Notes under the pieces: generated by a model
Told to the model about the DNA's origin: nothing
The model's input: only the letters and a program-made list of their open reading frames with translations
The model's database searches: none
In this document: positions 4,018-59,403 of the stretch, in pieces
Numbering within the stretch: position 1 is the stretch's first letter
Layout of the letters: each line of letters opens with the position of its first letter
Origin: a virus
DNA length: 64,000 nucleotides
Virus record (IMG/VR): IMGVR_UViG_3300049194_000052
Location: 9,093 to 73,092 of that record
Reading direction: 5' to 3' (one strand)
Made by a program: the position numbers and the translations under genes

Positions 4018-4042
4018 CAGCGTGAACTTCCTAAATCACAAT
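4014..4042 (+). promoter_or_regulatory. Sigma70-like promoter upstream of the scaffold/capsid genes
   Basis: TTGACA(4014-4019)-N17-CACAAT(4037-4042) in an AT-rich gap. Confidence 0.5.
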
Positions 4043-4069
4043 TCTGTCAATCCGTAAAGGGCTATAGAC

Positions 4070-4651
4070 ATGTCGAAAACCGCACTGACCCAAGCTGAGA
4101 TTGCCGCACTGGCCGCCTCCGCCGGTATCACGCCCCCTGCCGCCGCAGCCACGGGCACCGAAGTGACAAAAGAAGAAAAAGAGACGCAGGAGGCGGCTGA
4201 TGCCGCCGCTGCCGCAGCAGCCGCCACGGCCGCTGCGGAGGCCAGCGCAGCAGCCTCTGCCACCAAGCCCGCCGCAACGCCGTCGGCTCTCGAAGTTCTG
4301 GGCAGCCAGCTCGCCGCGAGCGCCCAGACCCTCGCTCAAACCCAGTTGGAACTGACGCAGGCGAATGCCCGTGCCGATGCACTGCAGAAGACCGTCGACG
4401 GCCTGTCCGCTGTCGTGTCGATGTCGGTCTCGACCATGCAGGTCGCGCTCGGCGCCAGCGCCCCCGACCTGAGCAAGTTGAGCGGCGACCAGCTGCTCGC
4501 CGAGCACGCCACCACCGCCGAGAAGTTCAAGTCGACCTTCAAGGTTGGCGGCGTCGCAGCCGTCTCGAAGGGCGGCGACGTCCAAGACAAGCCGGTCGTC
4601 GACGCGAACCACCTGGCTCGCGTCAACGCGACCCGTTTCAACACCAAGTAA
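4070..4651 (+). CDS. Putative scaffolding protein
   Basis: Ala-rich low-complexity N-terminus plus coiled coil; sits between the protease and the decoration/capsid genes. Confidence 0.6.
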   Translation: MSKTALTQAEIAALAASAGITPPAAAATGTEVTKEEKETQEAADAAAAAAAATAAAEASAAASATKPAATPSALEVLGSQLAASAQTLAQTQLELTQANARADALQKTVDGLSAVVSMSVSTMQVALGASAPDLSKLSGDQLLAEHATTAEKFKSTFKVGGVAAVSKGGDVQDKPVVDANHLARVNATRFNTK

Positions 4652-4660
4652 GGAGCCGCA

Positions 4661-5146
4661 ATGCCCAAGTTCATCATGACGGAGCTGGTTGACGCCCGCG
4701 ACAACGTCTTCACCTCCCGACTGGGCGCCGGCACCGGCGCTGCCAATCAGCTGACGGACAAGGAGGTCGGCAAGTTCGTCAAGCAGGTGGCCGAGAGCCG
4801 CTACGACCTGTGCGCCGTTGGCGACGAGATCCAGGGCGTGATCAGCTCGGTCGAGGCCGCCACCCAGGACAACTACACGATCGGCTCCGTGCGCAGCACC
4901 GGCCGCAAGTCCGTCACGTTCGATGGTCTGCAGGCAACCCCCGGCACCGGCGTGGTCGCGATCGGCGACTTCGTGGTCTGCGGCACCCCCGTGGCCAAGG
5001 ACACCGCCTTGGCATTCCCCGCGACGGCCAAGGTCTGCAAGGCCACCGCCGCACCCAATGCCCTCGTCTACCTGTGGAAGGTGGTCTCGCTGGGCAGCGC
5101 AGGCACCGGCGCCGTCGGCACCACCGGCCTGATCGAACGCGTCTGA
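4661..5146 (+). CDS. Head decoration (cement) protein
   Basis: 161 aa, Gly/Ala/Thr beta-rich, immediately upstream of the major capsid gene; strong AAGGAG RBS. Confidence 0.6.
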
Positions 5147-5176
5147 CCAACCCGAAACTCAAGGAGAACCTCAACC

Positions 5177-6340
5177 ATGTCCGCTTTTCTCGACGCTTCG
5201 GGTAACGTCCAACAGCTCCCCATCACGGTGGAGATGTACCGCGCCGCGGCCGACGCCAACATGACGCTGCCGCAGTTCATCAACGCGCAGCACCCCACCG
5301 ACCACGAGCGCTACGGCTCCGCCTTCAACCAGATCCTGGCCAGCGAAGGCATCTTCGTGCGCCCGAACCGCGAGCTTGGCATCCGCGCCACCACGATGGA
5401 CGAGATCCTGAATGGCAAGCGCGGCGTGCAGGCGGCGTCGGTGGTCAAGGACGCCGTCCCGACCAGCCGCATCCTGTTCCCGGCCGTCACGCTGCAGGCC
5501 GTGGAGGACAAGCTCGTCGCCAACTTGACCATGACCGCCAACGCGTTCGATGAGCTGGTGGGCTACGAAGAGTCCATCAACCAAGAGCGCTACGAGCAGC
5601 CGGTCATCAACTTCGACAAGCCGGAAGCCGGTCGCTCGCAAGGTATCGGTCAGCTGGCCCAGCCTGCGTCGATGATGACCATCACGGTCAGCGACAAGGC
5701 CTACCGCATCCCGACCTGGTCGCTGGGTATGGAGATCTCGGACCAGGCACTGAAGGCCTCGACCCTGGACTTCGTCGCCATGTCGCTGGCCCGCCAGGCT
5801 GCAATCGAACGCAATGAGCGTGCTCAGAACTATGTCCTCGCGCTGCTGAACGGCGACGTGGACAACGGCGAGGCTGCCCTGGCCCTGGACAACTCCACCA
5901 GCTTCGACGCCGCTGCCACTGGCGGTGTCATGACCCACGAAGCGTGGATGAAGTACCTGATGAAAAACGGCACGAAGCGCACCATCACGCACATCGTGAC
6001 CGACATCAACATGGCGCTCAAGGTCGAGAAGCGCACGGGCAAGCCGGTGATCACGCAGGACGACTCGAACACGTCCCGCATCGACACCCAGTTCGCGATC
6101 ATGAACCCGACGTGGGCCAAGAACCCCAAGGTGTTCCTGGTGGACCAGTCCAGCTGGCCGGCCAACACCATGATGGGTCTGGACAAGAACTGGGCGATCC
6201 GTCGCGTGCGCAACCTGAGCGCCGAGTACAACGCGATCGAAGCCTACGTGATGCGTCGTTCGACGGCCTTGCGCTTCGACTTCGGCGAGCACGTGAACCG
6301 CATGTACCCCGAAGCCTTCGCCGGCTACTTCCAGCTGTAA
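5177..6340 (+). CDS. Major capsid protein (HK97 fold)
   Basis: 387 aa, highly biased codons, AAGGAG RBS, canonical position, followed by a hairpin. Confidence 0.85.
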
Positions 6341-6346
6341 ACCAAA

Positions 6347-6370
6347 GGGGCGCCCAGCGCCCCGATTCTT
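6347..6370 (+). terminator. Stem-loop after the capsid gene
   Basis: GGGGCGC-CCA-GCGCCCC followed by GATTCTT (weak U-tract). Confidence 0.5.
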
Positions 6371-6380
6371 CGAGGACCCC

Positions 6381-6647
6381 ATGAGCGATACCAAGACCGA
6401 AAACAAGCCGGCCGAGCCCAAGGCAGCCCCAGCCGCCAAGGCGAGCACCGAAGGCAAGACGCCGTTCGAGGCAGCTGGCCTGGTGCGTGGCAAGAACTAC
6501 CGCTTCGTCGCCGTGCACGGTGACATTTGCCACTACGAGAACCGCACGCGCTTCGCGACGGACGACTCGGTGAAGCACGAGGCGGATGCCTGGGTCGAAA
6601 TCCAGTTCAACGCCGGCAAGCTGCGCCTGGAAGCGGACGAGGAGTAA
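6381..6647 (+). CDS. Hypothetical head-module protein
   Basis: GAGGA RBS; phage-like codon usage. Confidence 0.7.
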   Translation: MSDTKTENKPAEPKAAPAAKASTEGKTPFEAAGLVRGKNYRFVAVHGDICHYENRTRFATDDSVKHEADAWVEIQFNAGKLRLEADEE

Positions 6648-6653
6648 CCCCAG

Positions 6654-8889: not shown

Positions 8890-8956
8890 CACGCTTGGCG
8901 TGCCGCCCGTCTGCGGTCTACAATCCGATTGACAGATTTGCAAAAAAGGAATTGCC

Positions 8957-10210
8957 ATGGCTTTCACCGGTTCCAGCTCGAATCGCGCGCAGCTCGCTTA
9001 CAAGGTCGAAGGTGCCTATCCCGCCAACTTCGGGGTGACGCCGGCCGGCAACGGCGCTCTGCTGAACATGACCGGTGAGACGCTGGACTTCCAGATCAAG
9101 ACGCTGACGTCGAAGGCCATCCGCGCTGACCGTCTGCCGACCGACGTGGTTCAGGTGAGCGCCACCGCAGCCGGCGGCTTCAACGCCGAGCACGTGTACA
9201 AGGAGTACGACCCGTTCATCGAACAGGCGCTCCAGAGCGACTTCGTGAAGTTCGGTACGGCCGGCGTTACCGCGGCAGTTGCCAGCCTGACGGCTGCCGC
9301 GACGACGCTGACCGCAGGCGCGGCCCCGACTGGCAACGATGCGTGGACCACGCTGAAGAAGGGTCAGTGGTTCGTGATCCAGCCGGCCGCAGGCGCGACG
9401 CAAGCCATGAAGGACTACCTGGCCGGCCGCGCGTTCCGCGTTTCGCCGACCACGGGTCCGACGGCCACCGTCATCACCCTGGACACCGCGACGCCGTTTG
9501 ACACCACGAAGGGCACGAACCTGAATGGTGCTGCGCTGGCGTCCGGCTATGCCTGGAACGGTGCGTCCATGAAGACCTTCTCATTGGAGGTCCAGCACCA
9601 GGACATCAGCCAGTACCGCCAGTTCACCGGCATGGCCGTGTCGAAGATGGACCTGAAGTTGACCGTGGGCGAGATCGTCTCGCTTGCGTTCGAGTTCATG
9701 GGCAAGGCATCGACGCTGGCGCAGGCCTCCATCGTCGGGTCGCCTGCTGCATCGCAGGCTTTCACGCCGGCCAACGCAACGCGCGGCATCTTCGACGTGT
9801 TCGAGGCTGGCGTGTCCATGTCGACGACCAGCTACATCAAGAGCGGCGAGATCAGCTTCGACAACACGCTGCGTGGTCAGGAAGCCGTCTCGGTCTTCGG
9901 CATGGCCGGCATCGGCGTCGGCACGCACAACATCACCGGGAAGATGGAGGTGTACTTCGCCGACGCCGTGATGTACACGAAGTTCCTCAACAACACGGCC
10001 TCCTCGCTGAGCATCCCGATCCTCGACATCAACGGCAACGGCTACGTCTACTACTTCCCCCGGATCAAGTATTCGGCCGGCAAGGTCAACGCCGCGGGTC
10101 AAGACCAGGACACGATGCTCTCGATGGACTGGATGGCCCTTCCCGAAGTCGACCCCACGAGTCCGTGGGTCAACAAGTCTGCCGTCATCTTCCGAGTTGG
10201 CGCCGCCTGA
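8957..10210 (+). CDS. Major tail tube protein
   Basis: Siphovirus tube signature (N-terminal S.R.QLAY.vE...G.TP, C-terminal ITGKMEVYF); AAGGA RBS. Confidence 0.85.
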   Translation: MAFTGSSSNRAQLAYKVEGAYPANFGVTPAGNGALLNMTGETLDFQIKTLTSKAIRADRLPTDVVQVSATAAGGFNAEHVYKEYDPFIEQALQSDFVKFGTAGVTAAVASLTAAATTLTAGAAPTGNDAWTTLKKGQWFVIQPAAGATQAMKDYLAGRAFRVSPTTGPTATVITLDTATPFDTTKGTNLNGAALASGYAWNGASMKTFSLEVQHQDISQYRQFTGMAVSKMDLKLTVGEIVSLAFEFMGKASTLAQASIVGSPAASQAFTPANATRGIFDVFEAGVSMSTTSYIKSGEISFDNTLRGQEAVSVFGMAGIGVGTHNITGKMEVYFADAVMYTKFLNNTASSLSIPILDINGNGYVYYFPRIKYSAGKVNAAGQDQDTMLSMDWMALPEVDPTSPWVNKSAVIFRVGAA

Positions 10211-10236: not shown

Positions 10237-10266
10237 AATGACGAAACATCAAAATAGGAAATACTC

Positions 10267-10674
10267 ATGTCCGAACTTCTCGACATCTTTGCTGAATTCG
10301 CCACCGACGAGAACCTGGAGAACAACGGCACCTGGTTCCCGCTGGGCGGCAAGGCCCGCGTGTTGGTCGCCCGCAGCGGCAACCGCGCCTACGCCAAGTC
10401 GCTGTCGGCAGAGGTCAACGAGCACCAAGCGACCCTCGACCTGGACAACGAGGCCGCCGACACCCTGAGCGAGCAGATCATGGCTCGTGTGATGTCAAAG
10501 ACGATCCTGCTGGGCTTCGAGAACTTCGCCTTCAAGGGCAAGGCCATCAGCTACAGCCATGAGAACGCCGAGAAGCTGCTGATGGTCAAGGACTTCCGTC
10601 GCCAGATCGTGAAGTTCTCGGAGACCGTCAGTGCCTACAAGGCGAATCTGGAGGCGGCGCAGGGGGAAGCCTAA
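10267..10674 (+). CDS. Tail assembly chaperone (gpG-like)
   Basis: Between tube and tape measure; ends CAG GGG GAA GCC TAA. Confidence 0.85.
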   Translation: MSELLDIFAEFATDENLENNGTWFPLGGKARVLVARSGNRAYAKSLSAEVNEHQATLDLDNEAADTLSEQIMARVMSKTILLGFENFAFKGKAISYSHENAEKLLMVKDFRRQIVKFSETVSAYKANLEAAQGEA

Positions 10675-17174: not shown

Positions 17175-17887
17175 ACGGGCTCGTCGAGGAGATGCTCGCC
17201 CACGCAGGTGTTGAGCAGCCTCGCGAAGCCTGCGGCCTTGTCGTCGCACGTGGCACGAAGTTTCGAATCGTGCGAGCACGGAACCTGGCGGCCGACCCGA
17301 TCAACACGTTCGACCTTGACCCTGACGCATGGCTGCAGGTGGGCCACGACGAGGAAGTGATTGGCATCTACCACTCGCACCCAAGTGGCAACCCCGAGCC
17401 GAGCCTGTGCGACCTGAGCGGGTGCGAGGCAACCCAGCTTCCATGGCACATCGTTGGCTGTGGCACAGGCGCTTACCGGCGTATCGATCCAAGTGGCTTC
17501 CGTGCGCCGTACCTCCGGCGGCCCTACGTCTACGGTGTCCACGACTGCTGGGCTCTCGTCCGTGACTGGTACAGGTGGGAGTGGAACCTTGACATCCCCG
17601 ACTTCCACCGGGAGCCGGACTTCTGGCTGAGGGGGCAGAACCTGTTCCTGGACCACCTTGAGCAGGCCGGCTTTGTGGTCCAGACGGAGGGCGACGTCCA
17701 GGCGGGCGACGGCTTCCTGGTGCAGATGAGCAGTCCGGTGCCGAACCACGCTGTTGTCTACCTCGGGGACGGAACGATTCTTCACCACGTCAGAGGGCGA
17801 CTGTCCACGCGCGATCCGTGGGGAGGCTACTGGGCAAAGCACGCTAGCCACCGAGTAAGACATAAATCTAAAATAGGAGCTTCATGA
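17171..17887 (+). CDS. Tail tip assembly protein, lambda gpK-like (JAB/MPN + NlpC/P60)
   Basis: EACG...YHSHP...S..D and DCW.LVRD...H...Y.G...ILHH; GTG start overlapping the gpL stop. Confidence 0.93.
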   Translation: MNGLVEEMLAHAGVEQPREACGLVVARGTKFRIVRARNLAADPINTFDLDPDAWLQVGHDEEVIGIYHSHPSGNPEPSLCDLSGCEATQLPWHIVGCGTGAYRRIDPSGFRAPYLRRPYVYGVHDCWALVRDWYRWEWNLDIPDFHREPDFWLRGQNLFLDHLEQAGFVVQTEGDVQAGDGFLVQMSSPVPNHAVVYLGDGTILHHVRGRLSTRDPWGGYWAKHASHRVRHKSKIGAS

Positions 17888-25004: not shown

Positions 25005-25283
25005 ATGAGCATGGGCGTCATCAGATCCTGGATCACCAACGTGCTGGTCGCCGCCGACCAGTTGGTCAACGCAGTGCTCGGCGGAGACCCCGACGAGACG
25101 ATCAGCTCCCGGGCGGCAAAGGCGGCCAGGCGCGGCCACCGCTGGGGTTGCGTGCTCTGCCGGGCACTCGATGCCCTGCAGCGGGACCACTGCGAGCGTG
25201 TGATCGAGACGGACGAGGGACGCTTTCGGTTGCGGTGGCAGCAACTTGGAGGTAGCGAAAAGAGTGACAATATTGCAAAATAG
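25005..25283 (+). CDS. Conserved phage hypothetical protein (DQLxNxxLGGxPDETISSR; CxxC...HC)
   Basis: Recognisable motif often seen next to lysis genes; function unknown. Confidence 0.7.
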   Translation: MSMGVIRSWITNVLVAADQLVNAVLGGDPDETISSRAAKAARRGHRWGCVLCRALDALQRDHCERVIETDEGRFRLRWQQLGGSEKSDNIAK

Positions 25284-25307
25284 GACGTACTACACAGCGT
25301 CCTGCCA

Positions 25308-28114: not shown

Positions 28115-28123
28115 ATTATGACA
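28115..28123 (-). promoter_or_regulatory. Extended -10 element, candidate int promoter
   Basis: Minus strand reads TG-T-CATAAT about 90 nt upstream of the int ATG. Confidence 0.45.
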
Positions 28124-28189
28124 GAAAAAGTAAGAAAGGAACCTCTACACGTCCCCACGCGACTCGCATCACAGCCCTCAGCGGACGTG

Positions 28190-28223: not shown

Positions 28224-28248
28224 CTGCGACTGGTTCAGCTTTTCCTAG

Positions 28249-35390: not shown

Positions 35391-35406
35391 TCAGCACCTC
35401 CAGTGC

Positions 35407-35432
35407 AAAGAAAGAACCCCCGCAGGGGTTCT
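35407..35432 (-). terminator. Intrinsic terminator between ligase and sbcD
   Basis: AGAACCCC-TGCG-GGGGTTCT then TTCTTT. Confidence 0.75.
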
Positions 35433-35458
35433 CTTAATTGAATTGTGTCACTTTTGGA

Positions 35459-36343
35459 TCAAGTGTCAATCTCGGCGCGCAGCCCCAGGAAAACCGGGAA
35501 GCGCGGGGCCTGTTGGGCGCCGATCTCGAAGTGCTTGAACTTCACCAGGGTGCCGACCAGCTTCTCGCGCTGGCCCCACAACTCCTGGCGCTGCTGCACG
35601 GTGAAGCCAGTGCCGATGTTGAACTCGATGCCGGCCTTGGTGGTGCAGATCAAGGCGCCCATGCGACCCTTGCCAACCTTGTTCTCGGCGTGGCTGCTGC
35701 GCTTGGTGTGGCCCAGTTCGTCGGTCGTGGCCTCGTTGCCGTTGTGCATCTCCTCGACCATGCCGATGATGGTGGCCTCGTCGTCGACGAAGTTCTTCAC
35801 CTTCAGCAGCGTGCCCTCCTTGGGCGTCGAGCGGCCGAACTTGTAGACGCTCTTCGGGCCGCGACGCTTGCGCAGCATGCCACCCTCGTAGCCCTGTTCG
35901 AGGAAGATCGCTTCGAGGTCGCGAAGCTGCTCCAGAGAGCAGACCTCGAACTGAGGCAGCACGACGACGCCGGGGCCTTCCACCAACTTGGCACGCCGGG
36001 CTTCGTACTCATGGCCAGGCTGAGCGATGTGATCGAACGCGTAGAACCGGACGTCCGGCTCACCCGCTGTCTTCATCACCGCAGAGTAGGTCTTGTTGTA
36101 GCAGTCCTTGTCGGTCGGTTCGCCGCAGATCAGCTCGCCGTCGAAGTATTCCAGGCTGCCGAAGCGCTGCTGGACGGACGCATTCGGGATCGGGATCAGC
36201 TTGCGGGACAGCACAACGCCGTCGCGCACGATCGCGCGAATGCCGTCGAGCTTCGGGCTGAAGAGCCAGCCGTCGTCAGACGTCCAATCGATCAGGTCGA
36301 AGTTGGCCTCTTTAGCCAGGAGGGGTGCGAAGGGTTTGGACAT
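35459..36343 (-). CDS. ATP-dependent DNA ligase (minimal NTase + OB)
   Basis: SPKLDGIR, FDGEL, FYAFD, GYEGGMLR, LLKVK, GTGF, PRFP. Confidence 0.95.
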   Translation of the reverse strand: MSKPFAPLLAKEANFDLIDWTSDDGWLFSPKLDGIRAIVRDGVVLSRKLIPIPNASVQQRFGSLEYFDGELICGEPTDKDCYNKTYSAVMKTAGEPDVRFYAFDHIAQPGHEYEARRAKLVEGPGVVVLPQFEVCSLEQLRDLEAIFLEQGYEGGMLRKRRGPKSVYKFGRSTPKEGTLLKVKNFVDDEATIIGMVEEMHNGNEATTDELGHTKRSSHAENKVGKGRMGALICTTKAGIEFNIGTGFTVQQRQELWGQREKLVGTLVKFKHFEIGAQQAPRFPVFLGLRAEIDT

Positions 36344-37140: not shown

Positions 37141-37194
37141 CGACTCCCCTGGTACTGCTCAGGGGATTCTAGAGGTTCACAACGGCGAATAGTG

Positions 37195-37605
37195 TCAATC
37201 CAGCTTGTGCGTGCCTTCGGTGCCGGCTGCCATGCGGCGCTTCGTGCGGCGTTGCAGGATCTCCTGGGCGGATTCGAGGTGAGCCAGGGCCTCAGCGTTC
37301 TCTGCGCAGGCGAAGGGGCCGGCCTGGAAACAGCGCAGGCGGTCTGCCAGGACTGCGAGCAGCGCTTCGTGCGTCACGCCGTTGACACCGGCTTCAGCGA
37401 TCGGACCATTCTGGAAGAGGATCGTGACGCCTGGCACGATGTCGTCGCACTCCGGCGTCGAGGGGTTGGTGCTGTCGTCAAAGCCGGTGATGTCGTAGCG
37501 GTGGTGAGCACCACCCGAGCCAGGGTCGTCGCTGACGCGGATCTTCAACTTGTCGTTGGCCGGGTTGACGATGTGGTCGGTGAGAAATCGCATGATGTGT
37601 CCCAT
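37195..37605 (-). CDS. tad1: Tad1-family anti-defence signal sponge (start may be 37593)
   Basis: G.GGAHH.Y...FQ.GP....NGV..E.LL.VL.DRL..FQ.GPF...EN..A...LE.A...L..R...R....EGT matches the Tad1 pattern along its whole length. Confidence 0.85.
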   Translation of the reverse strand: MGHIMRFLTDHIVNPANDKLKIRVSDDPGSGGAHHRYDITGFDDSTNPSTPECDDIVPGVTILFQNGPIAEAGVNGVTHEALLAVLADRLRCFQAGPFACAENAEALAHLESAQEILQRRTKRRMAAGTEGTHKLD

Positions 37606-41263: not shown

Positions 41264-41563
41264 TCAGTCCCGGTTGTGATGGTGAAGACGCTTGCGCTTC
41301 TCTTCAGCGCTCGCGCAGTGCACGCAGAGCAGGTTTCGGATGGCTACGCGGAGACGCTGCTCGCCGATCTCCAGGCCGCATTCGTCGCAGTCGGTGACCG
41401 CGTAGACGCCGTTGGCGTCGGGTCGCTGGTCGACCTTGCACTTGCCTCGGATCGCATCGACGAGGCCTGCGGTGGCCTTCATCTCGTTGCTGGATGCCCG
41501 GTCAAGGACGTCCGGCAGGCGTTCTGTGTCGTCGTCGAACGACCTTTCATCGATTTCTGTCAT
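41264..41563 (-). CDS. TraR/DksA C4 zinc-finger protein
   Basis: DVLDRA (DxxDxA) plus CDEC...CVHC and C-terminal E. Confidence 0.85.
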   Translation of the reverse strand: MTEIDERSFDDDTERLPDVLDRASSNEMKATAGLVDAIRGKCKVDQRPDANGVYAVTDCDECGLEIGEQRLRVAIRNLLCVHCASAEEKRKRLHHHNRD

Positions 41564-44644: not shown

Positions 44645-44672
44645 ACTCTATCCTTTTTTAGAAAAGTGTCAA
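44645..44672 (-). promoter_or_regulatory. Sigma70-like promoter coincident with a 21-bp motif copy
   Basis: TTGACA-N16-TAGAGT. Confidence 0.6.
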
Positions 44673-48106: not shown

Positions 48107-48132
48107 CGTGAGCTTTCAGTAGACGTGCGATT

Positions 48133-49617
48133 CTATAGAGCGTCGCAATTTATGGAAATGTCATTTCCGATCCCAAGTAACTCGGTCTTGAGGTCTGAAG
48201 CATTTCGGATGACGGTGTTGACCAGGGTGTCGTTCTCGATCAGCTTCTTGAACCCCTGCAATTGAAGGGTGCGCTGAGCGATCAGCAGGATGACGCCGAC
48301 CCGCTTCTTCTGGCCGGGCCGCAGGAGGCGGCGGATGGCCTGGTGGAAGTCCCGGGGCTGCTGGCAGGGCTCGATGAACATGCACCAGTTGCAGACGTGC
48401 TGAAAGCCGTCCAGCCCCTTGCTGCCACTGATGAACTGCACCACGATGACCCGGCACGTGGGGTCTTCGATGAAGCGCTGCTTGTTGCGCTCCTTCTGCG
48501 CGGCGCTGATCTCACTGTTGTAGCCGACGGCGCCGTAGTCGCCCAGGGCGATGACCAGGTTCCGCACAGTCATCTTGTAGTCGGCAAAGATCACGAGCTT
48601 GCCGGTGCCCATCTCCTGCAGCTTCTGGTCGACCATCACGGCGGCCTCGCTGAACAGGTCGGGATTGCCGGCGAAGTGGTTCCAGTTCACGACGATCTGG
48701 CCGAGTGCGTGGCGCAGCCGATTGGCCGTGCTGGCGTCGATCTTGCCGCCGTCGGGCAGCTTCAGCATTTCGTCGTTGACCAGGCGGCGGTACAGCTTCT
48801 CGTGGTCGGGGTGCAGCTCGTAGTTCAGGGGCATGTACAGCGGCTTGTCCGCATCGGGGTACATGTCGCTGTAGAGGATGCGCTTCGAATTGATCAGCAT
48901 CGCCGCTTCAAGCTGGTCAAGGTTCTGCCACTTGATGGGCATGTCGTAGAAGTCGCGTTCGAGGACGTGGGTGTTCTCGAAGTGCTTCTTGGACCGGTAG
49001 GTGCCAGGTGCGGAGAACTTCAGCAGGCCGTACCCGTCGCCCGGCTTGTTGATCGGCGTGCCGCTGAGTGGCATGACCGTGTGGCCGAGCGAGAACTCGT
49101 AGCAGGCCTCGTGATTGGCACTGTCGATGTTGGCCACCATCGTGGCCTCGTCGATGATCACCACGCGGAGGTCGTTGCCGTACTCGTTGTAGAAGCGCTC
49201 GTAGTCCCGCTTAAATACCTGAATTCCAACTATGACAAAAGTAGAGCGCAGCGATAGCTTTGAGCGCTGCTTGGGAGTGCCGTGGTAGGGAGTGACCGAC
49301 GGTGCCGGCTTGATCGAGCGCAGCCATACAGCCCACTGGACGATCAGGTTAGGCGGCACGATGACGACGACACGGGCGTTCTCCGTGATCACCCTGTACA
49401 GCGCGCACACGGTGCTCATGAACGTCTTCCCGGTGGCCATGTCCATCCAGCCGCCCGAGTTGCGCAGCGGGGCCAGATCGTTGATCGCGTCCACCTGGAG
49501 CGGGGCAGCTTCGAACGGGAAGGTGTAGTGCCTAAGCACCAGACCGAGTGGTGTCAGGCTGGTGGGCGCCTCGGCGCCTGAAGCGGTAGTCGGTGTGTCA
49601 GTTAGCGCGAGTTGCAT
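48133..49617 (-). CDS. SF2 (SNF2-like) helicase
   Basis: MATGKT, IIDEAT, LSGTP, GLDG.Q, QAIRRLLRPGQ. Confidence 0.88.
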   Translation of the reverse strand: MQLALTDTPTTASGAEAPTSLTPLGLVLRHYTFPFEAAPLQVDAINDLAPLRNSGGWMDMATGKTFMSTVCALYRVITENARVVVIVPPNLIVQWAVWLRSIKPAPSVTPYHGTPKQRSKLSLRSTFVIVGIQVFKRDYERFYNEYGNDLRVVIIDEATMVANIDSANHEACYEFSLGHTVMPLSGTPINKPGDGYGLLKFSAPGTYRSKKHFENTHVLERDFYDMPIKWQNLDQLEAAMLINSKRILYSDMYPDADKPLYMPLNYELHPDHEKLYRRLVNDEMLKLPDGGKIDASTANRLRHALGQIVVNWNHFAGNPDLFSEAAVMVDQKLQEMGTGKLVIFADYKMTVRNLVIALGDYGAVGYNSEISAAQKERNKQRFIEDPTCRVIVVQFISGSKGLDGFQHVCNWCMFIEPCQQPRDFHQAIRRLLRPGQKKRVGVILLIAQRTLQLQGFKKLIENDTLVNTVIRNASDLKTELLGIGNDISINCDAL

Positions 49618-51288: not shown

Positions 51289-51316
51289 AGAGTATCCCAC
51301 TTTGCATATGTGTCAC
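51289..51316 (-). promoter_or_regulatory. Sigma70-like promoter coincident with a 21-bp motif copy
   Basis: GTGACA-N16-TACTCT. Confidence 0.5.
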
Positions 51317-51350: not shown

Positions 51351-51755
51351 TCAGGACGCGTACTCGCGGACGGCATCGGCCGAAACGGTGCCTTCCACAA
51401 GCAGCGCAACAAGGGTCTCGCTCAGGACTTCGGGGCTCTCGTTCGGGAACACCTCGATGTGGCAGACGTCGGTGAGGATCAGGTAGATCGTGTTGGCGCC
51501 TAGCGATGTGACAACACCCCGCGCCCAGGCGAAACGACGCTGGACAGCCTTCATTTCCTGATCGTCGTCAAAGGTGAACAGCGCATCACCGTGGATGAAG
51601 CCGCCGTTGCCCCGGACCAGCATGCGGCCGATGTCGCGCACGTCGTCATCGTCCTTCCCATGCAGATCTCGGATGAAGCCGTGCAGGCAGCTGGTGACGA
51701 ACATGGAGAGGTCCTTGACGCCTTCCAGCTTGAGGCGGATGGTCAGTTCACCCAT
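51351..51755 (-). CDS. Hypothetical protein
   Basis: AAGGA RBS. Confidence 0.7.
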   Translation of the reverse strand: MGELTIRLKLEGVKDLSMFVTSCLHGFIRDLHGKDDDDVRDIGRMLVRGNGGFIHGDALFTFDDDQEMKAVQRRFAWARGVVTSLGANTIYLILTDVCHIEVFPNESPEVLSETLVALLVEGTVSADAVREYAS

Positions 51756-51779
51756 GGTGGTTCCTTCCTTCAGGTAGTG

Positions 51780-53027
51780 TCACAGTGAGGCCGCCTGAAG
51801 GTCCGCCACGGCGCCGTCGTAGAACTCCTCGCGCAGCGCCTGCATTGCCCAGTCGCTGCCGACGTAGCCCCAGCACGCGTCCTGGTAGGACTGCACCCAC
51901 TCTGGCTCGTCAGCTGAGCTGATGTTGGTGAAGGTCTCAATGACGCAGCCGTAGACGTCGCCGCCGAGCCAGGCGTTGTATTCGTCGAGCGCCTGTTGAG
52001 CCAGCTCGCGGGCGGCCTGGCGCCGGCCCCAGGCCCGTTGCACATCGGTCGGATTGAGCGGGCCGGCAAGCTGTTCGGCACGCTTGAACACGGTGTCCCA
52101 GTTGTCGGAGAAGTCGACCGAGACCAGTTCGTGATGCTCGTCGTCCTTCCACACGAGCTGCAGCAGCTGGTAGTCCTTGCCTGTGCCACGCAGCTGAGCG
52201 GGCGGCTTGCGAATCAGGAAGCTGGCGTAGACCCAGTCACGCCGGTCGATCTCGTCGCGGGCGACGTCGTCGGGCAGCCACACGCCAGCGCCGCTGCTGG
52301 TGTCCCAGCGGCATTGCATGCCACCGCCACTGATCGACCAGTGCAGGCCGCTGTGGTCGTAGACGTCGAGGACGACGGCGTCCTTGTCACCGATGTCGCC
52401 GCGGTCGCGGGCTGCAATCCACAGGTCGTGCTGAACCTTCTCGACGTCAAAGTGAAAGAGGGCCGCAGCGTTGCTCGCCTGGTGGCTGCTGAAGTCGTGC
52501 TCGGTGAGGTAGCTGTTCGCGTCGCACAGCGCGTAGTAGGGGCGGGTCTCGGTGAAGATGTCGGTCGTGACCAACTCGTCACGCAGGGCGTTGATGTACT
52601 CGCCAGCGGCGTTGCATTCGTCCTCGCTCACAGGCGGCGGGTAGCCCAGCTCGTCGATCACGGCCGACCAGAAGTCGCTGTCCTGCCTCTCCAGATACGC
52701 AACCCATGCGGCGTTGACGTCGTCGGCGACCTTCTCGTAGTCGGGATCACCGTGGCGGTCGAGGCCGAGTGCCTCGAACATGTCGACCTCACTGTGGTTG
52801 CGAGTCTGGTACTTCCCCCGGCCAACGACGCGGCCATAGCCATCGCTGTTGTCGAGGGGGTTCTCGCAGTCGTCGTCGTGGACCAGGTAGGCCACGACCA
52901 CCTGGAAGCCGGACTGGTGGATGAGCGGGTCCATTCCATCAACAGGCTTGAACTGGAGTTCGATTTCTGTGCCGTTGTCGTCGTCGAGGGTCAGGGTGTG
53001 ACCGGTCCGCGAGAGGAGGCTGTACAT
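51780..53027 (-). CDS. Conserved acidic phage/MGE hypothetical protein (YDHSG...CRWD.S...G; EYNAWL.GDVYG; CWGY.G)
   Basis: Motif family often seen in early regions; AAGGA RBS. Confidence 0.8.
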   Translation of the reverse strand: MYSLLSRTGHTLTLDDDNGTEIELQFKPVDGMDPLIHQSGFQVVVAYLVHDDDCENPLDNSDGYGRVVGRGKYQTRNHSEVDMFEALGLDRHGDPDYEKVADDVNAAWVAYLERQDSDFWSAVIDELGYPPPVSEDECNAAGEYINALRDELVTTDIFTETRPYYALCDANSYLTEHDFSSHQASNAAALFHFDVEKVQHDLWIAARDRGDIGDKDAVVLDVYDHSGLHWSISGGGMQCRWDTSSGAGVWLPDDVARDEIDRRDWVYASFLIRKPPAQLRGTGKDYQLLQLVWKDDEHHELVSVDFSDNWDTVFKRAEQLAGPLNPTDVQRAWGRRQAARELAQQALDEYNAWLGGDVYGCVIETFTNISSADEPEWVQSYQDACWGYVGSDWAMQALREEFYDGAVADLQAASL

Positions 53028-54440: not shown

Positions 54441-54974
54441 TCAGCAGTCGGTACGGAAGATCCAGACGCCTTCGCCGTCGACACGGATGGCGGTCATCCA
54501 CTGCTCGGCATCACGCAGCCAGGCCTCGTAGTCGAAATACTGTTTGACCTCGTCGGGCACGTCGTTCAGGTAGCCGGTGTCGTCGAGGTATTCGTAGGCC
54601 CAGTCGGTGGCGCTGTCGAAGGTGCCCATATAGGCCTCCTCCGCTTCCTCAAGGGTGCCGTCCTGGTTGACGTTGTCGAGGTACAGCTCCAGCACCTGGC
54701 GCTGCGTCTCGCTCAGCTCGACCCACTTCTCCCAGACCTCTTTGTTCAGGTGGCTCTCGCTGATGAAGGCGTCCGGGATGCCCTCCCAGTCCTGGAACAT
54801 CGGCTCGATCTCGCCGTACAGCTCGATCTCCTTGGCGTGCAGCTCGTTGACTGCCTCCCAGAAGCCGTCGATGTCGTCGTAGTCCTCCAGGTCCAGCCAG
54901 GCGCCGTGCAGGCTGCCTTCGTTGTAGGCCCGGTACGTGCCAACGTAGATGCGGGGTTCGGTGTCATATTTCAT
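54441..54974 (-). CDS. ardA: ArdA antirestriction protein (DNA mimic)
   Basis: RIYVGTY..YN.G.L.G.W.DL..Y...F...QD.EG.P...Y.G.F.S..DWA.E..P....YFDYE...RD; very acidic. Confidence 0.93.
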   Translation of the reverse strand: MKYDTEPRIYVGTYRAYNEGSLHGAWLDLEDYDDIDGFWEAVNELHAKEIELYGEIEPMFQDWEGIPDAFISESHLNKEVWEKWVELSETQRQVLELYLDNVNQDGTLEEAEEAYMGTFDSATDWAYEYLDDTGYLNDVPDEVKQYFDYEAWLRDAEQWMTAIRVDGEGVWIFRTDC

Positions 54975-54999
54975 GTGAACATCCTTAGTTCAAGAAATG

Positions 55000-55245
55000 T
55001 CAAACAACGGCCCGGCTGTGCAGGCGAGCCTTGATTTCTTCGGTGACGGCTGCGTCTCGGACCTCTGCGAGGGGCACTCGGTCCATGACGCGCATCGAGA
55101 CAGCCAGGTAGGTCTCCATGACCGCCCACGCATCGCGCAGGTCGCGGCGCTTGGAGCTGGCCAGCTGGCGGCGGAGGGCATAGGCGGCCTTGACCACCTT
55201 CTCCTTCGCAATGGTGTTGGCGAAGGTCGCCTGATCGTCTGACAT
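55000..55245 (-). CDS. Hypothetical protein
   Basis: AAGGAG RBS. Confidence 0.7.
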   Translation of the reverse strand: MSDDQATFANTIAKEKVVKAAYALRRQLASSKRRDLRDAWAVMETYLAVSMRVMDRVPLAEVRDAAVTEEIKARLHSRAVV

Positions 55246-55266
55246 ACTTCTCTCCTTCAGTAAATG

Positions 55267-55599
55267 TCAAAGCGACACGGGTTTGAACCGCATCGTGGCC
55301 AGCGGGTGCTTCGCCAGCACGTCCTGCACCGCCCGCCACATGCCCGGCAGATTGCTGATCCGGTTCTCGCTGTAGTCGTAGCTGCACATCACGTAGCGAC
55401 GCAGGTCCGGCTCCAACTCGAAGTCCTCGTGCTTGAAGCAGTACGTGATGTCGCGGTCGTAGTCCCGCATCAGCAGAAAGCGCGAGTCCTCCAACTCAAC
55501 GGTCCAGACGGCAACGCGCTGGCCGTTGACGGTGTAGGGTCGGCCGGTGTTCCAGGTGGCCTCAAGGCGGGCACGGGGCTCAAAGGCGACGTAGCTCAT
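55267..55599 (-). CDS. Hypothetical protein (WNTGRxYxxxGQR family)
   Basis: AAGGA RBS; ATGA coupling. Confidence 0.7.
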   Translation of the reverse strand: MSYVAFEPRARLEATWNTGRPYTVNGQRVAVWTVELEDSRFLLMRDYDRDITYCFKHEDFELEPDLRRYVMCSYDYSENRISNLPGMWRAVQDVLAKHPLATMRFKPVSL

Positions 55600-56159: not shown

Positions 56160-56471
56160 TCAGTCCTCGAACTCTTCAGGGACCACGATTCCGCAGGTCC
56201 GCAGCAGCTCGATGGCCTGCTCCGGCAGCGAGAAGACGCCGTCGTAGTCGCGCAGGGTGCGCTTGCCGTCGACCATCTCGTACCACAGGCCGATCTCTTC
56301 GGTCCTCTCCAGGGCTGGGATGTCCCAATCGATGAAGCCACGACCGGCCTCACCTTCAACTTCGTGGAGGTCCATCGTGGACTCATGCTTGCCCTGGTCA
56401 CTGACGCCCCAGCTGCCTTCGAGAACCAGCTCAGTGGTGAAGGTCTTGCTCGCAATGGGTTTGTTGCTCAT
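56160..56471 (-). CDS. Acidic hypothetical protein (DWDIP...IGLW...DYDGVFSLP)
   Basis: AAAGGA RBS before MSNK. Confidence 0.75.
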   Translation of the reverse strand: MSNKPIASKTFTTELVLEGSWGVSDQGKHESTMDLHEVEGEAGRGFIDWDIPALERTEEIGLWYEMVDGKRTLRDYDGVFSLPEQAIELLRTCGIVVPEEFED

Positions 56472-56502
56472 TGATGTTCCTTTCAAGCGGAAAGTGTCAA
56501 AG

Positions 56503-57059: not shown

Positions 57060-57065
57060 GTGTGC

Positions 57066-57706: not shown

Positions 57707-57976
57707 CTAGATGACGTAGTTAGCTGGCGGCGGCTCGTCGAGCAGCTCGCCACTGAACCAGCCGATTTCCTTGAGGTAGTCGGTGGCGATTTCTTCGGCG
57801 GTGTCGTCGTCGAGGCGCACGGCGGGCAGGTAGGAGTGGACGGCGACGAACATGGGCTCGAAGCCACAGTCCCAACCCACGAGGCGAGCCTTCAGCGGGA
57901 TGACCTCACCGGTGTGCACGGCGAGGGCGTCGTCAACGGAGTGGCCGACATAGGCCAAGGCTTGATGGCGGTTCAT
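57707..57976 (-). CDS. Hypothetical protein
   Basis: AAGGA RBS. Confidence 0.7.
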   Translation of the reverse strand: MNRHQALAYVGHSVDDALAVHTGEVIPLKARLVGWDCGFEPMFVAVHSYLPAVRLDDDTAEEIATDYLKEIGWFSGELLDEPPPANYVI

Positions 57977-57997
57977 ATTGCCTTCCTTCGCAAAGTG

Positions 57998-58312
57998 TCA
58001 ATCATTGGGATGGAACCATTCACGTTCGTCTTCGTCATCGTCGTCGTCGACGTGGCCCATCTGGTGGCGACCGTAGAAGGCGTCGCATCGAGACTTCACA
58101 TCCATGGCAATGCCCTGCCAGGCTTCGCCACTGACCAGGCCGTTGCCGAGCTTCTCGACCGGCGTAGCGATGACCCTGGCGCTGTACTCCTGGATGGCTT
58201 CCATGATGAAAGCCTGGCACAGGCCGCCGTAGGGGCTGTATCGCATGAGATCGGCAACGAGGGCCTCGTTGTCGGTGATGCGCTTCATGCGCTCGATGTC
58301 GTACTTGTTCAT
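57998..58312 (-). CDS. Hypothetical protein (..S.YG.L.QAF..EA...Y...V family) with acidic tail
   Basis: TGACATG coupling. Confidence 0.7.
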   Translation of the reverse strand: MNKYDIERMKRITDNEALVADLMRYSPYGGLCQAFIMEAIQEYSARVIATPVEKLGNGLVSGEAWQGIAMDVKSRCDAFYGRHQMGHVDDDDDEDEREWFHPND

Positions 58313-58313
58313 G

Positions 58314-58565
58314 TCAGTACCTGTACCCGCGGTTCTCGCGAAGGATCTGCGCGTTGATCATGTGTTCGCCGGAGCGCTGATCCGAAACTCGGGCGCACAC
58401 CTGCTCGATGTATTCGACGCTCGGGTTGCCTGGGGCTTCGATCAGATCCTGTGCGATCTCCAGGCGGTCACCCGCCGAAAGCATCGCGTCGCTCTTGAAG
58501 ACGGTCTCGCAGATGCGGACGTAGCGCTCCATCGCGGAGAAGGTCATGTTGGACCAGGTTGTCAT
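58314..58565 (-). CDS. Hypothetical protein
   Basis: GGAG RBS. Confidence 0.65.
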   Translation of the reverse strand: MTTWSNMTFSAMERYVRICETVFKSDAMLSAGDRLEIAQDLIEAPGNPSVEYIEQVCARVSDQRSGEHMINAQILRENRGYRY

Positions 58566-58566
58566 G

Positions 58567-58728
58567 TCAGGCTCCAGTGAGTTGGTGAGTTTGGGACTCC
58601 GCCTTCAGGCGCTCGATTTGCTGCTGCATGGCCAGGACCAGTGCGTCCAGGCGGGATATCTCATCCAGTGCGGCACGCTGCAGGCACAGGCTTGGGGACT
58701 GCAGGATGAGGGCTTCACGGATTTGCAT
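58567..58728 (-). CDS. 53-aa coiled-coil protein not in the ORF track (MQIREALILQSPSL...)
   Basis: AGGAG RBS, fills the gap exactly, TGACATG coupling downstream. Confidence 0.6.
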   Translation of the reverse strand: MQIREALILQSPSLCLQRAALDEISRLDALVLAMQQQIERLKAESQTHQLTGA

Positions 58729-58936
58729 GGTGGGGCTCCTGTGAAACGCCTGCTGCGATCCCCTGCTCGATGAGGTCCTGCCAACCGACCGACCAGGTGC
58801 GGCCTGTCTTCATGTCCTTGACAGCCGGGGTATGGCCGTTGATCAAGCTCATCTCGAACTCGGTGCCATCGGGGCCGGTTGCTGTGCCAACGAGGCTGCG
58901 CAGCAACATCGCGTCCTTCTCATACATCTTTGACAT
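58715..58936 (-). CDS. Hypothetical protein
   Basis: AAGGAGG RBS region; start MSKMYE. Confidence 0.7.
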   Translation of the reverse strand: MSKMYEKDAMLLRSLVGTATGPDGTEFEMSLINGHTPAVKDMKTGRTWSVGWQDLIEQGIAAGVSQEPHHANP

Positions 58937-58937
58937 G

Positions 58938-59297
58938 TCATGCCTCCTTGTGCCAGACCGTGACCCGGAACTCACTTGCCCAGGGCTCGTAGTCGTGATC
59001 AGCCATGGCCCGCTGGTCCTCTGCCCAATCGAAGCCGCCCTGCAGCGCGATGGACTCGACGTTGGGGAAGCGGCGCTGGATCTCGGCGATGTCCCGGTTG
59101 GTGGTTGCCTCAGTGGCCTTCCACTCCCAGCAACCGCTCTCAGTCAGGTACTCGTTGCCGTCTGAGGCGATGAACTCGGTCATGCGCTGACGCAGCACAC
59201 CAGGGCCACAGCTCCGTTCCGCTTCGTCACGGGCAAAGTCGAGAGCGGAGTCGACGTCGTCGACGAGGGACTCAAACGAGTCGTGAATCATTCCCAT
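58938..59297 (-). CDS. Acidic hypothetical protein
   Basis: AAGGA RBS. Confidence 0.7.
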   Translation of the reverse strand: MGMIHDSFESLVDDVDSALDFARDEAERSCGPGVLRQRMTEFIASDGNEYLTESGCWEWKATEATTNRDIAEIQRRFPNVESIALQGGFDWAEDQRAMADHDYEPWASEFRVTVWHKEA

Positions 59298-59338
59298 GAT
59301 GCTTTCCTTTTGAAAGTGTCATTCCTGGCACAAAGCGA

Positions 59339-59364
59339 GAGCCCAAGGTGGTCGCCTTGGGCTC
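59339..59364. other. 10-bp stem-loop in the leader downstream of the early promoter
   Basis: GAGCCCAAGG-TGGTCG-CCTTGGGCTC. Confidence 0.7.
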
Positions 59365-59375
59365 AGGTGCGGCGC

Positions 59376-59403
59376 AGTATGCCGCAAATTGAATAAGTGT
59401 CAA
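59376..59403 (-). promoter_or_regulatory. Sigma70-like early promoter coincident with a 21-bp motif copy
   Basis: TTGACA-N16-CATACT directly after a terminator. Confidence 0.6.

Follow-up and report, generated by a model that had tools for sequence, protein, structure and literature searches.

Promoter-early stem-loop (PeSL) cassettes are stereotyped regulatory repeats located between the small, fast-turning-over early genes of T4-type phages. KorB of plasmid RK2, a member of the ParB family, acts as a repressor at numerous promoters scattered over a mobile element, and its OB sites are palindromic. The stoperator consensus of mycobacteriophage L5, GGTGGMTGTCAAG, contains TTGACA on the other strand. 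The operator/stoperator sites of Cluster A phages (L5 gp71, TipsytheTRex) are asymmetric and orientation-locked, occur in more than 20 copies, and are found in promoters and short intergenic spaces of both arms (PMC9283540). The start-associated sequences (SAS) of Cluster K mycobacteriophages contain the Shine-Dalgarno (SD) sequence, lie 3-7 bp before ATG-enriched starts in one orientation, can include the upstream stop codon, and precede differing genes in related phages; they are suspected of acting in translation initiation (Pope et al. 2011, PMC3203893).

The phage studied here (G000) is an uncultured soil phage with a genome of 87,171 bp and a transcript of 64% GC; the runs containing its DNA were DNA-type soil and rhizosphere metagenomes, with none recorded as RNA. 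The window is a stretch of 64,000 nucleotides of this genome, in which the first-pass annotation had described 20 copies of an asymmetric, transcription-oriented 21-bp site. All 20 coordinates carried the sequences reported for them on the strands given, while only eight matched the strict form of the consensus. The strict consensus matched nine times in the window against none in 100 shuffles; the ninth match, at 4164-4184 (+), was not among the earlier 20 and lies within a Lys/Glu-rich coding stretch of the ORF map. A matrix built from the 20 copies gave leave-one-out scores of 12.8-29.8 bits, and matches of at least 12 bits numbered 24, compared with 1.25 on average in Markov-1 simulated sequence. 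Across the whole genome, the strict consensus occurred 11 times and its reversed control did not occur. The most over-represented 8-mers of the genome were TGACATTT (8 copies against 0.88 expected) and GATTGACA (9 copies against 1.25 expected). The genome total was about 28 copies. The motif was indeed asymmetric and dispersed over both arms, in promoters and short gene junctions, and its co-orientation with transcription held for 16/16 TGACAYTT words, taking the minus-strand ORF as the likelier gene at one word.

A TGA stop followed by an AT-rich spacer and an SD sequence does not account for the junction copies, as TGACA is in excess. It made up 12/28, 10/23 and 6/20 of the TGANN words 20-30 nt before starts in the three motif-bearing genomes (G000, G001 and G002), whereas the genome-wide probability of CA after TGA is 0.05-0.06 (binomial p = 2e-6, 1e-5 and 7e-3, at a conservative rate of 0.09).

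The 21-bp site is real but composite, and comprises about eight promoter copies, about nine junction-module copies and three incidental copies (4029, 35430 and 30535). Two or more classes were merged in the alignment that presented it as a single site; in the promoter copies the position-20 G occupies -14, ahead of the -10 hexamer, and in the others it belongs to the SD. The idea of one site with one reader is unsupported, because about eight copies are ordinary sigma70 promoter elements, of which four were called by a consensus scan and several are conserved as promoters in relatives. The features are listed in Table 1.

Table 1. Copies of the TGACA motif and associated features (window positions unless stated; d, distance from TGACA to the start codon in nt)
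Feature	Position	Strand	Remarks
Promoter TTGACA-17-CACAAT	4014..4050	+	Consensus scan 10/12
Promoter TTGGCG-18-TACAAT, then junction module copy 8930	8895..8959	+	Consensus scan
Junction module, TGACG variant	10239..10269	+	ATG 28 nt from T
Junction module, AGACA variant	17858..17886	+	Inside last codons of upstream gene; ATGA overlap
Late-arm variant TGACAnnnTTGCAAAATAGGA	25265..25285	+	No ATG nearby
Late-arm variant adjoining integrase gene and attP	28119..28139	+	No start codon after
Doubtful copy	30535..30555	-	TGA is ParB stop, ATGA overlap; remainder in first codons of next ORF
ParB/KorB-like protein	30553..31410	-	GxxRxxA motif, weak HTH_ParB match
Single promoter with two copies	35430..35469	-	Scan 10/12, TG present
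TTGACA box 21 nt upstream of TAGAAT -10	37166..37198	-	Copy 37177
Sigma70-type promoter TTGACA-16-TAGAGT	44645..44672	-	Consensus scan; holds copy 44651
Promoter TTTCCA-17-TAGAAT	48130..48163	-	Scan; TGACA box (copy 48143) abuts -35 upstream
Promoter-like GTGACA-16-TACTCT	51289..51316	-	Copy 51295; under scan threshold
Junction module	51753..51782	-	TGA is stop of 415-aa gene; ATG 27 nt on
Junction module before ArdA anti-restriction gene	54972..55002	-	TGA is upstream stop
Junction module, d = 24	55243..55269	-	TGA is upstream stop
Junction module, d = 28	56469..56499	-	Upstream stop is TAA 6 nt before, in frame with TGA
Junction module GATTGACACTTTGCGAAGGAAGGCAATATG, d = 24	57974..58000	-	TGA is upstream stop
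Junction module in 5' UTR	59295..59321	-	About 48 nt after predicted start of 59382 promoter
Sigma70-type promoter TTGACA-16-CATACT	59376..59403	-	Scan 10/12; holds copy 59382
Extra copies outside the window	2139, 3843, 5467, 75635, 79930, 82975, 83970, 84384 (genome)		

The promoter-class copies belong to sigma70-type promoters with either a TTGACA -35 or a TGnCACAAT extended -10. The consensus scan called promoters at 59376-59403, 44645-44672, 35442-35469 and 48130-48158 (-) and at 4014-4042 and 8895-8924 (+), and those at 44651, 35448, 48143 and 8895 have promoter counterparts at the orthologous positions of G001, G002 or G006. In these copies TGACA serves as the -35 hexamer (as TTGACA) or, at a single site, supplies the TGn and the CA of an extended -10; positions 7-8, both A/T, belong to the AT-rich upstream half of the spacer, and the -10 hexamer begins at position 22, preceded by the position-20 G (-14). 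The TGA of TTGACA in the 44645..44672 promoter is the stop codon of the primase gene, and its orthologues read TTGACG-16-TATAGT in G001 and TTGACA-17-GACACT in G002. Where one promoter holds two copies, 35448 is the -35 TTGACA and 35430 the extended -10 (TGaCACAAT), with a GC hairpin directly after it; the two-TGACA layout is kept in G001 and G002, and the extended -10 with its hairpin in G006. The G002 orthologue of the 48130..48163 promoter retains TGACATTTTTG and a TACAAT -10. Copy 37177 resembles copy 48143 (CTCTAgAAT); its TGACA is too far from the -10 to serve as a -35. Copy 51295 has a downstream CTCTgCAC pattern in common with 44651, and judging from its sequence it may be a promoter-like site. 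Copy 4029 (-) is the antisense image of the 4014..4050 promoter, inside an inverted repeat TTGACAG...CTGTCAA. The 59376..59403 promoter lies directly downstream of a strong terminator hairpin (59438-59465); a promoter-like sequence at G002 41739, TGACATTTTCGTAAAGTGCGCATACACTGCGCC, is similar to it in sequence. At copy 8930 the order is TGACA, an A-rich stretch, AGGA and ATG at 8957, and the -10, TGAC(A/G), AGGA and ATG are all retained in G001, G002 and G006. The predicted transcription start falls on this TGACA, so the module would form the entire 5' UTR of a 417-aa tail gene.

The junction module is a stereotyped unit of TGACA and a ribosome site before about a dozen genes. It consists of (GAT)TGACAYTT, 4-8 nt, AAGGA(A/G)G, 4-7 nt and ATG, with about nine copies in the window and at least six outside. 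The distance from TGACA to the start codon is 24-28 nt, the range at which TGACA peaks in G000, G001 and G002. The junction modules have no usable -10 at workable spacing. When TTGACA is taken as the -35 in the d = 24 copies of G000, the sole -10-like hexamer is CAnCAT after a 15-nt spacer; it overlaps the ATG, and by simple arithmetic transcription would therefore start within the ORF. The motif TGA doubles as the stop codon of the preceding gene in 12/24 confident cases; among those whose upstream frame extends as far as the motif, the fraction is 12/17. Modules also occur within 5' UTRs downstream of promoters (59301, G001 57578, G002 14547), and the one at 59295..59321 has no upstream gene. 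The module at 10239..10269 is not retained at orthologous junctions. The translation initiation regions of module genes were less folded than those of other genes (-7.8 versus -13.0 kcal/mol, p = 2.5e-7), and ATG starts were found in 33/36 module genes versus 179/233. Neither hairpin covariation nor a conserved stem-loop was found in the module RNA.

The closest described parallel of the junction module is the SAS of Cluster K. Both are asymmetric, SD-containing elements in one orientation that precede the start codons of only some genes, by a few bases, with an excess of ATG and with different genes in related phages, and both can include the upstream stop. They differ in sequence (GGGATAGGAGCCC in SAS, TGACAYTT-N-AAGGA in the module) and in that the conserved box of the module lies 7-12 nt upstream of the SD, whereas SAS are conserved around it. 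The module also has copies in the structural arm, is without an ESAS-type inverted repeat, and belongs to a phage whose host is most likely a Gram-negative proteobacterium.

The motif recurs in two temperate relatives, G001 and G002, at different genes, and was not found in the early arm of the related G006 or in Pseudomonas phage Lana. This clade-specific occurrence is easier to reconcile with a reader encoded by the phage than with the ribosome alone. An integrase is present in G000 and G001, and G002 is a provirus; all three motif genomes are therefore temperate. G006, a complete relative, has no integrase, ParB or early-arm copies, a temperate-versus-lytic contrast of n=1 genome. Beyond TGACA, the early-arm (TGACA-YTTT) and late-arm (TGACA-nAAT...AAAAnAGGA) copies differ. 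In the late-arm variant at 25265..25285 the TAG is the stop codon of gene 25005-25283, and this copy is either promoter-like or an orphan module. That at 28119..28139 is near-identical to G001 38188, which lies ahead of the start of a 156-aa gene.

A stoperator-like network, in which one putative phage protein would bind (GAT)TGACAYTT DNA at promoters and junctions, overlapping the -35 or the transcription start at promoters, and would silence both arms of the lysogen in an orientation-dependent manner like L5 gp71, is rather unlikely. Its layout agrees with the published definition of stoperators (PMC9283540), as the sites are asymmetric, co-oriented, present in about 28 copies over promoters and short intergenic spaces of both arms, in a temperate phage of the same arm layout, and a core of 8-11 bp (roughly 16 bits) is common to promoter and junction copies. 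Against such a network, the core is short and degenerate against the 13-bp L5 site, the SD/ATG distance is fixed, which a roadblock does not need, and the arm-specific variants differ. The absence of an obvious CI noted at first pass was borne out, with no gp71-like repressor found in the phage and no L5-type or CI/Cro-type HTH among 82 small proteins, and in the probable early control region another repeat, TGGGGCCAA, occurs three times, with no TGACA box. The candidate reader would be an unrecognised repressor or the orphan ParB/KorB-like protein, the sole DNA-binding candidate common to the three motif-bearing genomes and absent from G006. This protein weakly matched the HTH of KorB in the PDB (E = 0.3); however, ParB-family sites are normally palindromic, as OB sites are, and G011 has a 41%-identical ParB homologue and no motif. 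It is improbable that all copies are compact promoter and RBS units, in which TGACAYT(T), or TGnCAnAAT in the late arm, would be a -10 or extended -10 type element read by the host RNA polymerase, perhaps with a phage sigma-like factor or appropriator, and transcripts would begin on the ATG or immediately 5' of the SD. In its favour, a promoter conserved in four genomes has TGACACAAT, TGACATATT and TGACATAAT as its extended -10, many late-arm copies read TGnCAnAAT or nAAnnT with GGGA at positions 12-21 (for example G001 6576, TACAATGGGA, and G002 50379, TAAATTGGGA), the near-invariant A3 and T7 would match A-11 and T-7 in a hexamer GACAYT, and the 14-kb early region yielded no canonical promoter. 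TGACACCCCC is reportedly a junction word in another phage, read as a compact promoter-type unit. However, no RNA polymerase or sigma-like gene was recognised with Pfam or PHROGs, only 5/11 G000 early copies have T at extended -10 position -7, no -35 lies upstream of the modules, leaders would be 11 nt long at most if transcription started at the SD, and early genes such as ardA need expression before any phage factor exists.

That the modules are mainly recombination linkers, stop-RBS-start junctions for early accessory gene swaps with ordinary translation signals and no dedicated reader, is quite improbable. Like PeSLs, module copies resemble each other more within than between genomes (53% versus 45% identity, p = 0.0002); they differ from PeSLs in having neither a usable -10 nor a conserved stem-loop. 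The early genes adjoining them have no homologues in G001, G002 or G006, module positions vary between relatives whereas promoters are conserved, the d = 24 form occurs in G000 only within IMG/VR, and the G000 repeat extends into the upstream last codon (GAT-TGA or TGATTGA, stops in two frames). Against this, neither of the two segments replaced in a strain of about 98.5% identity (57062-57106 and 60526-60822) has its ends at TGACA modules, conserved late-gene junctions carry copies as well, and genomes whose proteins share only 55-65% identity retain the same TGACAYTT core, which implies selection on the sequence itself.

The best reading, a tentative one, is a start-associated translation-initiation module that was conflated with promoters. 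This translation model gives no reason for the invariant ACA/CA after TGA or for the conservation of TGACAYTT (GATTGACAYTT in G000), which extends to copies where TGA is no stop (8930, 59301 and genome 84384), and the same extended core is found in promoter and module copies. The copy at genome 84384 is a full module with AAGGAAGGC, yet no start codon follows for about 50 nt; this and the clade-specific motif also speak against the model. The fixed 24-28 nt to the ATG, the ATG enrichment and the unstructured leaders favour an element acting at the level of translation no less than a roadblock to transcription, and we infer that the ribosome or an RNA-level factor reads the module. The modules look like repeated linkers homogenised within each genome. 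Under the translation-initiation reading, the module would act in cis on polycistronic mRNA as a start-associated sequence: its TGA would terminate the upstream reading frame, the G-poor, U/A-rich stretch would keep the ribosome binding site single-stranded in the GC-rich transcript, and the strong SD and ATG would allow independent, efficient (re)initiation for selected genes, among them ardA, small early genes and the tail gene.

Two kinds of dispersed, oriented junction motif have been described in actinobacteriophages: stoperators, of known mechanism, and start-associated sequences (SAS), of unknown mechanism. Among phages of Gram-negative hosts such motifs have, to our knowledge, scarcely been reported. 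The first-pass annotation of this phage had proposed about 20 copies of one asymmetric 21-bp stoperator-like site, named here by their left coordinates, and all 20 were found in place. The strict consensus held only in part: it gave nine matches against none in shuffled sequences, but just 8 of the 20 copies conform to it. A matrix built from the 20 copies recovered every one of them in leave-one-out scoring with at least 12.8 bits, and its matches of at least 12 bits numbered 24 in the window, compared with 1.25 in simulations. The genome's most over-represented 8-mers were TGACATTT and GATTGACA. Chance stop-codon context, which the annotation had itself raised against the motif, does not overturn it: TGACA made up 12 of the 28 TGANN words located 20-30 nt before start codons, whereas CA follows TGA in just 5% of cases genome-wide. 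Should TGACA-type junction words prove present in unrelated soil phages too (CTGACAAC, TGACACCCCC), the TGACA core could stem from a general feature, such as stop-codon context or a −35-like word, instead of a phage-specific reader. The proposed orientation with transcription was confirmed, as 16 of 16 TGACAYTT words lay in the sense direction once one mistaken ORF call had been corrected, with the same arm pattern in the related genomes G001 and G002. What did not stand was the unity of the site. The safest statement is that the alignment merged parts of sigma70 promoters with a separate, real and clade-specific junction element.

The sigma70 scan called four of the 20 copies as promoters, identified in the table, and about three more were weaker; the set as a whole did not show −35 and −10 hexamers with the spacing (16-18 bp) and the bases (A at −11, T at −7) that define such promoters. 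Copy 35430 supplies the extended −10 of the promoter at copy 35448, and copy 4029 is the plus-strand promoter at 4014 read on the opposite strand. Within the promoter copies, position 20 of the original alignment is the G at −14. Promoters are retained at the orthologous junctions of the relatives; at the 44651 site, for example, G001 has TTGACG-16-TATAGT. Immediately after the conserved promoter of copy 35448 (TTGACA-16-TGaCACAAT) comes a GC hairpin whose tail is T-rich (GAACCCCTGCGGGGGTTCTTTCTTT), a layout also present in G002 and in a further relative, G006. The hairpin could serve as a 5′ stabiliser or attenuator, or be a short RNA.

Features of the phage and its relatives (base-level positions in window coordinates unless otherwise stated; L045, phage genome stretch beyond the window; L047, another locus examined; L040-L044, loci of G006)
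Feature	Coordinates	Strand	Remarks
TTGACA-16-CATACT	59376-59403		consensus scan; copy 59382, sigma70 call
TTGACA-16-TAGAGT	44645-44672		consensus scan; copy 44651, sigma70 call
TTGACA-16-(TG)CACAAT	35442-35469		consensus scan; copy 35448, sigma70 call
TTTCCA-17-TAGAAT	48130-48158		consensus scan; copy 48143, sigma70 call
TTGACA-17-CACAAT	4014-4042	+	consensus scan
TTGGCG-18-TACAAT	8895-8924	+	consensus scan
Promoter with hairpin	35400-35469	-	
Junction module copies	8930, 10239, 17858, 51762, 54982, 55249, 56479, 57980, 59301		
TGAcATG junctions (examples)	54021, 58312, 58565, 62034, 63928		
CCACCAAGGAACCACCATG leaders (examples)	10412, 18096, 20833, 24933, 29098		G006 (L040-L044)
Rightward genes	~1 to 35.5 kb		terminase, portal, capsid, tail, 1694-aa and 1870-aa proteins, lysis
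Leftward genes	~85 down to 35.6 kb		~60 small early genes including ArdA
Leftward, after early genes			SNF2 helicase, primase, PolA, TraR-like zinc finger, ligase, SbcCD-like, ParB-like, ThyX
Tyrosine integrase			adjoins attP
attP tRNA-like 3′ end	28245-28267; L047:7578-7600		23-mer TTCAGGTCCGGCCCCGGGCACCA
105-aa protein	28391-28708	-	adjoins attP
99-aa DksA/TraR protein	41264-41563	-	directly upstream of PolA
Dam-type methyltransferase	L045:4111-4611; genome 77111-77611	-	early arm
192-aa protein	L045:11386-11964; genome 84386-84964	-	first early-arm gene; outside window
AT-rich non-coding region	L045:11890-12700; genome 84890-85700		~700 bp; outside window
Strain replacements	57062-57106, 60526-60822		441 and 424 unrelated letters
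Strain diverged block	57407-57595		equal length

The junction module is defined as TGACA(Y)TT, 4-8 nt, AAGGA, 4-7 nt and ATG, with TGACA located 24-28 nt from the A of the start codon. Nine copies lie in the window and at least six more outside it; the assignment of copy 30535, which falls within the opening codons of an ORF that follows an ATGA overlap, is doubtful. Upstream of the modules we observed ordinary GC-rich coding DNA with no −35, and none of the nine copies had a suitable −10 at workable spacing. Taking TTGACA itself as the −35 places the sole −10-like hexamer over the ATG (spacer 15-19 nt) and the transcript start inside the gene, so the modules do not serve the neighbouring gene as promoters. 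A sigma54 reading was likewise set aside, since by our own reading of the sequences the GG/GC spacing is three bases short, and a search for a phage RNA polymerase gene found none. The two arms carry different forms, TGACA-YTT(T) in the early arm and TGACA-nAAT-nGn-AAAAnAGGAA in the late arm. Several late-arm copies read as an extended −10, such as the conserved post-terminase site in the three genomes (TGGCAAAAT, GGTACAATGGGA, TGGTAAATTGGGA). A −10-type promoter reading of the modules is a less likely alternative. At copy 8930, a conserved TACAAT or CACAAT precedes TGAC(A/G) by 5-6 nt in four genomes; the transcript is accordingly expected to begin on the box, making the module the whole 5′ UTR of the tail gene. 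Promoters and junctions have aTTGACAYTT (roughly 16 bits) as a common core; outside it, the sequence varies by class and arm.

At the level of the mRNA, the upstream stop codon was the TGA of the motif itself in half of the confident cases (12/24), lay 5′ of it in seven, often as TGATTGACA, and 3′ of it in five. The initiation regions of module genes were much less structured than those of other genes (−7.8 vs −13.0 kcal/mol, p = 2.5e-7), and ATG was the start codon of 33 of the 36 module genes vs 179 of 233 others. A hairpin sequestering the Shine-Dalgarno (SD) sequence was tried and rejected: native halves averaged −1.72 kcal/mol vs −1.68 for chimeras (p = 0.44), the mean being only −1.7. 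Pairing of the pyrimidine tract with the SD is possible in some copies (CUUUC/GAAAG or CUUCC/GGAAG), about one third of the modules had no predicted structure, no covariation supported an SD hairpin, and Rfam gave no match in the window at gathering score. The favoured short coupling junction is TGAcATG (stop, one C, start), occurring eight times in this genome and four times in G006.

The distribution of the motif was compared across related genomes. The pattern TGACA-N12-RGGA occurred 11 and 10 times in G001 (81.6 kb, with an integrase) and G002 (a provirus), respectively, vs no copies of a reversed control, and with the same arm polarity. Promoter copies kept their position across relatives, while module copies stand before different genes (in G001, ParB and PolA among them), and modules were more alike within one genome than between genomes. 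Across IMG/VR, the exact pattern of this phage with 24 nt from TGACA to ATG had just one, unrelated, match, and the motif is absent from Pseudomonas phage Lana. The complete 89.6-kb genome G006, with 55% primase identity, retains the tail-gene and portal-gene copies and the extended −10 promoter and has only three TGACAYTT words. Its early genes use another stereotyped leader, CCACCAAGGAACCACCATG, before about 14 of them; tyrosine integrase, ParB and ThyX are all absent.

A co-occurring strain, approximately 98.5% identical, was present in metagenome runs X4 and X8. Among 40 listed of its 312 variants, none fell in the motif core, a comparison without power given an expectation of 0.2. The strain carries two replacements by unrelated sequence and a diverged block of equal length. 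The modules may also, less probably, be recombination linkers, as in the cassettes of phage T4 (PeSL), in which an early promoter and a stem-loop flank swapped ORFs. Unlike these, the modules have neither a −10 nor a site-specific hairpin (p = 0.44), and the ends of the two strain replacements do not fall at modules.

The record comprises 87,171 bp (window, bases 9093-73092) at 64% GC with a 127-bp terminal repeat, and near-identical DNA is present in many soil and rhizosphere metagenomes, all DNA-type runs with none on record as RNA. The gene maps derive from GC3-based ORF calls and contain errors, such as a false plus-strand ORF over the gene of the 192-aa protein. A proteobacterial host is plausible since the closest cultured relatives, although distant (28-35% major capsid protein identity), are Vibrio SHOU24-like phages and Pseudomonas phage Lana. 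Alignment of the major capsid protein found no prophage in the genome contigs database. The attP 23-mer had one exact match there, a tRNA fragment in an Oligoflexia MAG, where ARAGORN also found no intact tRNA; this match therefore gives no host assignment. The 105-aa neighbour of attP, with a homologue in G001 only, resembles by eye an AlpA/Xis-type winged helix and bears an AT-hook-like KRGGRPRK at its C-terminus. A DksA/TraR C4 zinc finger (PF01258, E = 1.6e-5) marks the 99-aa protein, which is kept in all four related genomes and may modulate host RNA polymerase. The early arm also encodes a phage Dam-type N6-adenine methyltransferase (PF05869, E = 3.7e-10).

The first early-arm gene encodes a 192-aa protein whose N-terminus (MPQLKARISDELHQKLVRFCELS...) looks, by eye, like a ribbon-helix-helix (RHH) fold, followed by an AT-hook-like RPKRGRKPGRG and a coiled-coil tail; Pfam did not recognise it. 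Just upstream are three TGGGGCCAA repeats, two direct and one inverted, which differ from the TGACA motif. The AT-rich region here contains two exact copies of GCCTGTGGATAACT (DnaA-box-like TGTGGATAA) and is probably an early control region and/or a replication origin.

Start-associated sequences of Cluster K mycobacteriophages are asymmetric repeats that include the SD and lie 3-8 bp before a strongly preferred ATG; their consensus is GGGATAGGAGCCC, they are confined to the non-structural arm, and their function is unknown (PMC3203893). The modules similarly carry AAGGA 4-7 nt before the ATG, with ATG starts preferred, but they differ in sequence and seven to eight copies lie in the structural arm. 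We favour a comparable start-associated role, in which the built-in stop, the unstructured U/A-rich leader and the strong SD with its ATG would act on the mRNA. The model leaves three points unexplained: why TGACAYTT is invariant, why promoters share the core and why the element is confined to one clade. A stoperator-like DNA site, which a phage protein would read, is therefore still a serious competitor. An L5-type (Cluster A) array comprises more than 20 asymmetric copies, oriented with transcription, in promoters and short intergenic spaces; the well conserved ~13-bp site is alike at promoters and junctions, and the bound monomeric repressor, with an HTH and a second domain, halts elongation in one orientation only (PMC9283540). 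The present set resembles such an array in its asymmetry, its orientation and its copy number (~28 in the 87-kb genome, from site lists), and the promoter scan and junction positions placed copies both in promoters and in short intergenic junctions.

Unlike the L5 system, no cognate gp71-like repressor was recognised. Among 82 small proteins, Pfam, which may miss a novel repressor, found no L5-type, CI, Cro or Xre HTH; the sole HTH matches were the small terminase and a weak HTH_ParB. Of the DNA-binding candidates, only the ParB/KorB-like protein is common to the three motif-bearing genomes (3/3) and missing from G006, but G011, a provirus with a 41%-identical ParB homologue, has neither the motif nor any other over-represented junction word. 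We consider it unlikely that this phage, probably of Gram-negative soil bacteria, employs genome-wide, orientation-dependent silencing of the stoperator kind through a non-canonical reader, most plausibly an orphan ParB/KorB-like CTPase or else an AT-hook/RHH protein, with a site within stop-RBS-start junctions such that one sequence would set both transcription silencing and translation restart.

As a practical lesson, TTGACA-centred alignments easily fuse promoters with unrelated junction elements. The clade presents a clean case: its TGACAYTT box stands apart from the SD at a constant distance, occurs in three temperate genomes and has been lost from the early arm of an integrase-less relative. 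If a phage protein or a modified ribosome reads the box, it would reveal how a phage can tag some of its genes for joint regulation; if the box is merely an optimised stop/restart linker, it would provide a useful rule for annotating starts and operons in GC-rich phages.
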